DNA of 35,557 nt, taken from Nitrospirota bacterium. GTDB lineage: Bacteria > Nitrospirota > Thermodesulfovibrionia > Thermodesulfovibrionales > Dissulfurispiraceae. The first letter of the stretch is position 1. Each line of letters opens with the position of its first letter. The position numbers and the translations under genes were made by a program. Shown in pieces: positions 1 through 1,704 of the stretch. The notes beneath the pieces were generated by a model. It was not told the origin of the DNA. It ran no database searches and saw nothing but the letters and a program-made list of their open reading frames with translations. The stretch is from assembly GCA_040758355.1 (NCBI GenBank), contig JBFLWF010000024.1:1-35557 (forward strand). The letters are read 5' to 3'.

Positions 1-92
1 AAATTCGTGTTATACAGAGAAGGGCTTACGGTCTCAGAGACGAGGAGTATCTGCGCCTGAAAATACTTACATGTATGCTCAAGGAGATATAA
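1..92 (+). CDS. ISL3-family transposase, C-terminal fragment (runs off the window start)
   Basis: Frame from position 3 reads IRVIQRRAYGLRDEEYLRLKILTCMLKEI*, matching the ISL3 C-terminal (NNKI)RVIxRRAYG motif; TAA at 90-92. Confidence 0.85.
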   Translation, partial: IRVIQRRAYGLRDEEYLRLKILTCMLKEI

Positions 93-120
93 AATGACCC
101 ACTCGATTACACGAAGAGCC
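1..120 (+). mobile_element. Right end of an ISL3-family IS
   Basis: Transposase stop is followed by CCCACTCGATTACACGAAGAGCC; its reverse complement begins GGCTCTTCG, a typical ISL3 terminal inverted repeat. Confidence 0.8.
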
Positions 121-171
121 AAGATTACAAGTCTGAAAGATACTTCCAATAAAACAAGGATTGAAACTTCA

Positions 172-618
172 CAGAGCGGAAGTGCAGAAGCACGGAAGCT
201 CGGAAGCAACTTCTGATATAATTTCAATATGGCGAAATATAAAGACCTCATAGTCTTTCAGAAAGCTGATGAACTTGCCTTTCAGATATACAGACTTACA
301 GAAACTTTCCCAAAACATGAAACTTTTGGATTAACCTCGCAAATCAGGAGAGCGGCATTGTCTATACCTACCAATATTGTTGAAGGATATGCGAGAAAAA
401 GCAAGAAAGAACTTGCTCAATTTATAAATGTTGCACTTGGTTCTCTTGCTGAAACCGAATATCTTCTGGACTTTTCTAAAAAGCTTAACTATCCCAAGAC
501 TGATACCTATGAGATTGAAAAATTGCTTGAAGAAGTTGGAAAACTCCTCTGGAGCTTTTATCGCTCACTTTAAGACGTTTTTTACTTCTGAACTTCCGCA
601 CTTCCGAGCTTTTGCACT
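172..618. repeat. Inverted 8-mer tandem arrays flanking the four-helix-bundle gene
   Basis: Left: CGGAAGTG CAGAAGCA CGGAAGCT CGGAAGCA (~177-208). Right: ACTTCTGA ACTTCCGC ACTTCCGA GCTTTTGC ACT (~584-618), approximately the reverse complement. Confidence 0.85.
229..573 (+). CDS. Four helix bundle protein (23S rRNA intervening-sequence protein / TIGR02436-like, Avd-like fold)
   Basis: YKDLIVFQKA...FPKHETFGLTSQIRRAALSIPTNIVEG...GSLAET family signature. Confidence 0.93.
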   Translation: MAKYKDLIVFQKADELAFQIYRLTETFPKHETFGLTSQIRRAALSIPTNIVEGYARKSKKELAQFINVALGSLAETEYLLDFSKKLNYPKTDTYEIEKLLEEVGKLLWSFYRSL

Positions 619-651
619 ATTCGGGGCTACTTCCAATAAAACAAGGATTTA

Positions 652-1704
652 TTACAACGGCAGATACGCCTTTGGATTTAGATCTATGCCCGCGATATTT
701 CCTGTCTTGAAGTGATGATACCCTGCCGCTGCTATCATGGCCGCGTTATCCGTGCAAAAAGAAATCGAAGGCAGAAATAATTCAACTTCCCTTTTCTCTG
801 CCATTTCTTTCATGCGCCTTCTCAATTCACTGTTCGCAGAAACACCGCCTGACAATGCAATCTTTTTTATACCCTTCCTTACTACCGCCCATTCCACCTT
901 TCTCACGAGAACATCAACAACAGCGGCCTGAAAAGATGCAGCAATATCGTTTATGTTGATAGCTGACTGCTGACTGCTGACTGCTGACTTTACTGCCGTC
1001 TTTAATCCGCTGAAGCTGAAATCAAAGGATTCAGGGACATATGCCCTTGGAAAATCAAATGCCTTCGGGTCTCCTTCCCTGGCAAGTTTATCTATTACAG
1101 GTCCGCCTGGATAGCCGAGGCCAAGCAGCTTTGCCACCTTGTCATATGCCTCTCCTGCAGCATCATCCCTTGTCCTTCCGAGTTCTACATATTGTCCGAA
1201 GCCATTAACGATATAAAGGCTCGTATGTCCACCCGATACGATAAGAGATAAAAAGGGAAATGACAACTTGTTCTCAAGGAATACAGAAAACATGTGTCCT
1301 TCGAGATGATTTACTGCAACAATGGGTATTTTTTTTGCGTAAGCAATCGATTTTGCAAAGCCGCATCCAACAAGCAGGGAGCCTATCAGGCCCGGGCCGT
1401 AACAGACGGCAATTGCATCAATATCATCAAGGGTAATGCCGGCATTGTTTAATGCCTCGTCCACAACAGGCCATATCATCTCTATATGTCTTCTTGAGGC
1501 AAGTTCAGGCACTATGCCGCCGTATTTCTTATGTATGTCGGACTGCGAAGAAACTACATTGGAGAGTATTCGTTCTCCATCAACAACCACCGAAGCCGAT
1601 GTATCGTCGCAGGATGTATCGATGCCCAAAATCAGTGATGAGTGATGAGCGATGAGTGATGAGACGCTTAACGCATTACGGTCTTTAGCCTCCTCCATAT
1701 GCAT
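652..1704 (-). CDS. tsaD: tRNA threonylcarbamoyladenosine biosynthesis protein TsaD (start uncertain)
   Basis: ILGIDTSCDDT, GGIVPELASRRH, HLEGH, GRTRDDAAGEAYDK, TDNAAMIA motifs. Confidence 0.96.
   Translation of the reverse strand: MHMEEAKDRNALSVSSLIAHHSSLILGIDTSCDDTSASVVVDGERILSNVVSSQSDIHKKYGGIVPELASRRHIEMIWPVVDEALNNAGITLDDIDAIAVCYGPGLIGSLLVGCGFAKSIAYAKKIPIVAVNHLEGHMFSVFLENKLSFPFLSLIVSGGHTSLYIVNGFGQYVELGRTRDDAAGEAYDKVAKLLGLGYPGGPVIDKLAREGDPKAFDFPRAYVPESFDFSFSGLKTAVKSAVSSQQSAININDIAASFQAAVVDVLVRKVEWAVVRKGIKKIALSGGVSANSELRRRMKEMAEKREVELFLPSISFCTDNAAMIAAAGYHHFKTGNIAGIDLNPKAYLPL

Follow-up and report, generated by a model that had tools for sequence, protein, structure and literature searches.

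A probable IVS-like selfish cassette in the trailer remnant of a type I-B CRISPR array at the 3′ end of tsaD

The window (the whole 35,557-nucleotide stretch of Nitrospirota DNA analysed here) is contig C24 of genome G000, an assembly of 93 contigs. Near its start it carries what is probably the trailer remnant of a type I-B (Cas6b) CRISPR array, colonised at its repeat ends by a mobile, selfish, IVS-like cassette; we give this reading a probability of about two in three. The cassette consists of inverted short-repeat arms, a predicted extended −10 promoter of its own and a four-helix-bundle gene. Members of its branch are often found immediately after the 3′ end of a CRISPR repeat and oriented like it, and a 5′-clipped repeat follows them.

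The left boundary of the cassette is a 37-nt repeat at 131..167 (+ strand). The initial annotation called it CRISPR-type, rightly: it is an intact type I-B repeat of the DR7 family, scoring 38.7 bits against Rfam CRISPR-DR7 (gathering score 37) and 100% identical to array repeats of two sister species, G001 and G002. By analogy with the 8-nt tag known for Cas6b with 37-nt repeats, Cas6b cleavage is predicted to leave 160-167 as a 5′ tag; type I-B Cas6b systems with 37-nt repeats carry the same 8-nt repeat 3′ end (both from the available part of PMC3479195). The suggested genome-wide search for further copies came back empty: the 37-mer is the sole copy within 10 mismatches on both strands of the 93 contigs, and regularly spaced copies with unique spacers are absent from the G000 assembly, which holds one full repeat only. 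The G000 array is best regarded as a remnant, since the orthologous site in G001 and G002 holds regular arrays. In the G000 assembly an ISL3-like IS end (1..120, +; transposase C-terminus ending at 97) stands 10 nt upstream of the repeat. It is multi-copy, with 120-130 nt matches at 26 further places in G000 and the full element as contig C85; we take it to be of the ISL3 family from its element ends and size. The intervening 121..130 (+), judged by its position before the repeat, is probably the final 10 nt of an IS-cut spacer. Its 8-nt target duplication has no exact partner across the G000 assembly. The flank of the IS on contig C54 agrees with window 121-132 in 11 of 12 letters.

On the right, the remnant is bounded by the stop codon (652-654) of the convergent tsaD gene (652..1704, − strand; TIGR03723, 442 bits). 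Against it lies a terminal repeat that retains an exact 22-nt core at 628..649 (+), its 5′ end clipped by the cassette arm and its 3′ end decayed against the tsaD stop; by a rough estimate, the chance of an exact 22-mer pair within 1 kb is ~1e-6. A degenerate second copy had been aligned here. The copy is real, and its core keeps 22 of 37 nt exactly, but it is not simply degenerate. The notional second repeat at 618-654 differs from 131-167 at 12 of 37 positions and reaches 17 bits (E 3.4) on DR7, and the right arm extends to 623, inside that repeat, so the repeat is 5′-clipped. The repeat-to-repeat interval is ~450 nt, against the ~35 nt between two full repeats that defines a CRISPR spacer.

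The cassette begins 8 nt past the left repeat with a left arm of four tandem 8-mers (176..207, +) and ends with a right arm of five 8-mers complementary to them (584..623, +), closing a long predicted RNA hairpin around the gene. The arm duplex is calculated at −42.4 kcal/mol, compared with −24.4 ± 4.2 for shuffles and −37.2 for the best of 300 shuffles, and the arm stem is retained in the centroid structure. The fold of the entire 131-654 region has a z of −1.97 only, which speaks against the preferred reading. A terminator-like hairpin was seen at 200-216 (one found, 0.3 expected). Between the arms lies a gene of 114 aa (229..573, +), annotated from the outset as encoding a four-helix bundle and confirmed as such by matches to TIGR02436 (119.1 bits, cut-off 24) and to PF05635, 23S_rRNA_IVP (123.1 bits); its product matches PDB 2gsc at E 4.8e-20. 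G000 holds six TIGR02436/PF05635 family matches, and two of these six loci (L034 and L035) gave no tblastn match. The protein is under purifying selection, with pN 0.08-0.15 and pS 0.64-0.88 across the seven relatives that are close to full length; for two short fragments the pN/pS values were 0.105/0.218 and 0.039/0.353. The gene is nonetheless dispensable, because a copy on one run X4 contig has a stop at codon 56 and just 5′ fragments of it remain in G045.

How the gene is expressed bears on the earlier proposal that it is co-transcribed with pre-crRNA and released by Cas6-type cleavage. An extended −10 box, TG-n-TATAAT (214..222, +), lies 6 nt before the ATG and is predicted to act as a leaderless promoter; a Shine–Dalgarno sequence is absent before 229..573. 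Of the 88 relatives that could be scored, 23 have the same motif 5-8 nt before the start, and all 23 lack a Shine–Dalgarno sequence. The motif occurs at 16/18 scorable repeat-adjacent loci versus 7/70 other scorable loci, the background being 54 of 1879 long ORFs of G000. Since the pattern was defined after the flanks had been seen and related loci do not count as independent, the significance of the motif within the branch (Fisher p 1.7e-4) is overstated. A −10 box 6-7 nt before the start codon drives leaderless mRNAs in Deinococcus, according to the accessible part of PMC12340547. The simplest reading is expression from a leaderless mRNA that begins near 229 and comes from the cassette's own promoter; with the extended −10 box so near the ATG and no Shine–Dalgarno sequence, this seems likelier than Cas6 release, although a standard −35/−10 scan of 100-760 found no promoters. 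Cutting of the intact left repeat by Cas6b is plausible by analogy, but the cut RNA is predicted to hold its leader in the stem and to lack a ribosome-binding site. Release by Cas6 as the route to expression is therefore doubtful, the more so as the −10 box is conserved in the branch.

Array trailers next to tsaD were compared, as had also been suggested earlier. Among 30 tsaD loci examined for the repeat core, four have it at the tsaD end (G000, G002, G004 and G019). In G002, 21 full repeats identical to 131-167 stand beside tsaD at a spacing of 71-75 nt. The last interval there is 530 nt long and holds a different four-helix-bundle gene (38% aa identity) between 7-mer arms, followed by a 5′-clipped repeat that touches the tsaD stop. 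The type I-B operon of G001 is complete and includes Cas6b (cas8b, cas7, cas5b, cas3, cas6b and cas1); a four-helix-bundle paralogue sits between cas1 and cas2, and 17 full identical repeats stand beside tsaD. Two intervals of this array, of 2328 and 971 nt, contain an IS3-type integrase and a PIN toxin pair as well as other ORFs. A toxin–antitoxin pair on contig C68 of G000 is 58-77% identical to the pair in the G001 array trailer. Neighbouring spacers at the orthologous arrays measure ~34-38 nt. These arrays dispose of the doubt that the 37-mer might form no array anywhere, and they place the G000 cassette in the last interval, as first supposed, of an array that is of type I-B and lies at the 3′ end of tsaD. 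In G004 the same last interval holds an AbrB/PIN pair, preceded by an orphan 8-mer arm and a core and followed by a second core. Across the family the core is present in 9 of 68 genomes (reversed control 0); six of these nine have gene-sized intervals between copies, and five have a cassette or arm against the repeat. The same arm-to-clipped-repeat junction is common to G004 and G044, which belong to two genera and carry it at different sites. The slot is thus real, old and repeatedly filled by different cargo.

The cas genes sought in G000 were found in part. Contigs C72 and C66 carry cas8b, cas7, cas3, cas6b and cas1 residues 1-113, with cas5 split over two contigs; cas5 and cas1 are both interrupted at IS ends. 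No cas2, cas4 or leader was found in the G000 assembly. Linkage of these contigs to C24 is suggested by synteny with G001. The assembly is interrupted at about 26 copies of a single IS, and several other IS families also lie at contig ends. Exact 8-nt duplications paired 21 of 26 contig ends across the IS and gave a contig order; C66 and C24 end at the same IS, and their target duplications do not match. The hope of joining across the ISL3 element to recover the rest of the array was not realised, the C24 end staying unpaired. A contig from run X1, perhaps the source sample, is identical over 131-1700 and has leader-like sequence directly before 131. IS-mediated deletion of the cas1 C-terminus, cas2, cas4, leader and spacers was considered and, given that contig, is not established; the missing piece with leader, spacers, cas2 and cas4 may be unbinned, deleted or collapsed in the X1 contig. 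In run X4 the 131-167 repeat is accompanied by many 31-37-nt spacers, and one X4 contig has 164-232 in common with the window and then other sequence. The joint 168-652 seen in X4 could represent either an empty site or an end resembling that of G002. A second, apparently intact CRISPR–Cas system, of type II, lies at C28:20386-25296 of G000, with a 1070-aa Cas9-like ORF, cas1, cas2 and an array of 36-nt repeats spaced 65-66 nt. Since a contig end formed by a repeated IS lies 130 nt away from the site, chance resemblance or an assembly artefact had to be weighed. It is scarcely credible and is refuted by the contigs of independent run X2, which show repeat-spacer-repeat and bridge the right arm to tsaD, and by the arrays that G001 and G002 carry at this position.

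Beyond this site, 91 relatives were compared, namely 30 loci from 301 genomes of the order and the best 80 of 187 loci from GTDB, with duplicates removed; the closest named records among those best 80 are mostly Nitrospirota. Adjacency was defined as a CRISPR repeat within 200 nt at a score of at least 16 (best of 73 shuffles, 11). By this measure 19 of the 91 closest relatives, the window included, adjoin CRISPR repeats (18 by score, one by eye), and they span seven CRISPR repeat families; the remaining 72 have no repeat beside them. The gene is in repeat orientation at all 20 inspected loci (the 19 and G002). At those whose contig covers the left side, left arms begin from a few nucleotides inside to ~14 nt past the repeat 3′ end. 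Right-hand repeats, judged by eye, are 5′-clipped in 11 of the 14 relatives that have one. In a quick tree (115 columns, 83 rows), all 14 repeat-adjacent rows fall in one 40-row branch with SH-aLRT 95, against 0/43 outside; the other 26 rows of that branch, at other sites, are intermixed with them. Repeat adjacency requires eight state changes on the tree versus 13.2 when shuffled (0/500). Both the haste and shortness of the tree and the exclusion of eight short or stop-bearing rows, five of them repeat-adjacent, weigh against the preferred reading. The non-repeat sites, which we named by reading the sequences, include positions that presumably follow methyltransferase- and sugar-dehydrogenase-like genes or lie between cas genes. 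Gene-less arm hairpins occur between repeats at L092, L111 and L129. At L107, L115 and L129 a 'repeat + left arm' unit recurs in tandem; the L107 unit also takes in the −10 box and continues into a different ORF, which suggests modular cargo exchange. L090 and L092 carry a second cassette type, which opens with a short GC hairpin placed exactly where the repeat ends on its 3′ side.

These patterns bear on the two routes of entry first envisaged. That the cassette entered the last interval stands. Ordinary capture of a giant spacer by Cas1–Cas2, with expression as a Cas6-released hairpin mRNA, might account for a cassette that starts 8 nt past an intact repeat and for leader-like sequence directly before 131 on the X1 contig, although that contig may have collapsed the array. 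The clipped right-hand repeats here and in relatives largely refute it, and further strain comes from neighbouring spacers of only ~34-38 nt, from the position mostly at array ends, from a gene with no Shine–Dalgarno sequence, from the variable cargo and from the many relatives away from any repeat; we hold this reading very improbable. Somewhat less remote, yet still unlikely, is an array-homing element inserted at repeat/spacer junctions by the CRISPR machinery itself, through mis-resolved Cas1–Cas2 integration or half-integration or through Cas6-cut RNA ends. It would better explain jumps between repeat families than recombination does, and the shared-core recombination of the preferred reading leaves the jumps among all seven unaccounted for. 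Left arms near repeat 3′ ends, always in repeat orientation, fit homing as well, and the repeat-adjacent share of relatives probably lies far above the arrays' share of intergenic sites. Against homing, 26 of the 40 branch rows have no adjoining repeat, right repeats are usually clipped, and toxin–antitoxin pairs and IS gather in the same intervals; the orientation bias could also stem from selection against antisense transcription, and reverse transcriptase (PF00078) was found in none of the six host genomes searched (its own and five others; incomplete assemblies). Were homing true, self-promoting genes would land at repeat/spacer junctions of type I and type III arrays, making arrays landing pads for gene cassettes. 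Insertion by CRISPR machinery would mean that arrays are able to accept genes of 450 nt, a capacity of consequence both for CRISPR biology and for DNA-writing tools.

The closest known counterpart of the cassette is the Coxiella burnetii 23S IVS with S23p. As described in the available part of PMC4990558, it shares a length of ~430-450 nt, terminal inverted arms that pair into a stem, short tandem repeats ahead of its gene, a PF05635 four-helix-bundle ORF, a poor ribosome-binding site and a selfish-element reading. The cassette differs in lying in a CRISPR array and not in rRNA, in its 8-mer arms and conserved extended −10 box, and in purifying selection on its gene, where S23p is reported to be decaying (same part of PMC4990558). 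Of the marks of an ORF-bearing IVS, it has the PF05635/TIGR02436 ORF and pairing terminal arms and lacks the 23S rRNA location; it works like an IVS and is not one by location. The protein family is homologous in fold to the DGR protein Avd (E 1.2e-10 for NF033474 and 3.3e-8 for PF22296 against gene 229..573), a relationship also noted for the four-helix-bundle family in the accessible portion of PMC10053308. Both Avd matches stay below their cut-offs (41.6 vs 80; 34.4 vs 40), and no reverse transcriptase was found in G000, so the locus does not qualify as a DGR. Compared with intact type I-B systems, G000 has split cas5 and cas1 and is without cas2, cas4, leader or spacers. Genes of the 23S_rRNA_IVP family also occur in cas loci, I-B included; there they lie among cas genes, and arms, promoter and between-repeat position are undescribed in the available parts of PMC3936711 and PMC10910872.

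That link raises the possibility of a domesticated CRISPR accessory, a four-helix-bundle protein from the array or the cas operon that aids or regulates adaptation or crRNA handling. The paralogue between cas1 and cas2 in G001, the 18 such genes counted in cas loci (PMC3936711, available part), the listing of the domain among adaptation-linked modules (PMC10910872, available part) and the selection on the protein all lean this way; strong purifying selection is compatible with a host function too, a point against the preferred reading. We rate the idea as improbable, since sister species have a different cassette or none at this site, broken gene copies exist, just one of the six G000 family matches lies at a CRISPR repeat and the G000 system is IS-damaged.

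Under the preferred reading, the pentameric protein most likely serves the cassette, by binding hairpin RNA or DNA, and not CRISPR immunity; this is the weakest step. Entry would take place at a repeat, through recombination across the core that the repeats have in common. The outcome would be a partial duplication, in which a full repeat precedes the cassette and a clipped one follows it; arms and cargo would later be swapped or lost via recombination between repeats. Such entry fits because G004 and G044 share the arm-to-core junction and gene-less hairpins lie between repeats; no filled and empty pair of near-identical alleles was found, so the insertion step is inferred only. In read-through transcripts the arms would bring the cassette into hairpin form, Cas6b or RNase III could then excise it, and such excision would make array ends a cheap place to live. 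No paper on such cassettes between array repeats was found, the supplementary module lists of PMC10910872 and PMC3936711 lying outside the scope of that search. The case adds an orthologous slot occupied by two unrelated cassettes, a spread over seven repeat families inside a single branch, and a leaderless-promoter signature. With different cassettes in the same array slot of sister species at one locus, it offers a testable case for how ORF-bearing IVS move and for the role of the four-helix-bundle protein, and part of the reported 23S_rRNA_IVP–CRISPR link could be explained as hitch-hiking.

Traces of similar cassettes may extend into tsaD itself. Runs of 7-nt tandem repeats lie at 962-989 and about 1634-1661 of the window, inside tsaD or at its start, and are possibly arm remnants of such cassettes. 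The run at 962-989 forms a short in-frame Ser/Gln insert, and a longer insert occupies the same place in G001. The G001 tsaD (L039:14888-15970) carries a ~30-aa in-frame insert with a palindromic motif between short repeats, which we take to be of the PPQPPLAKGG type.
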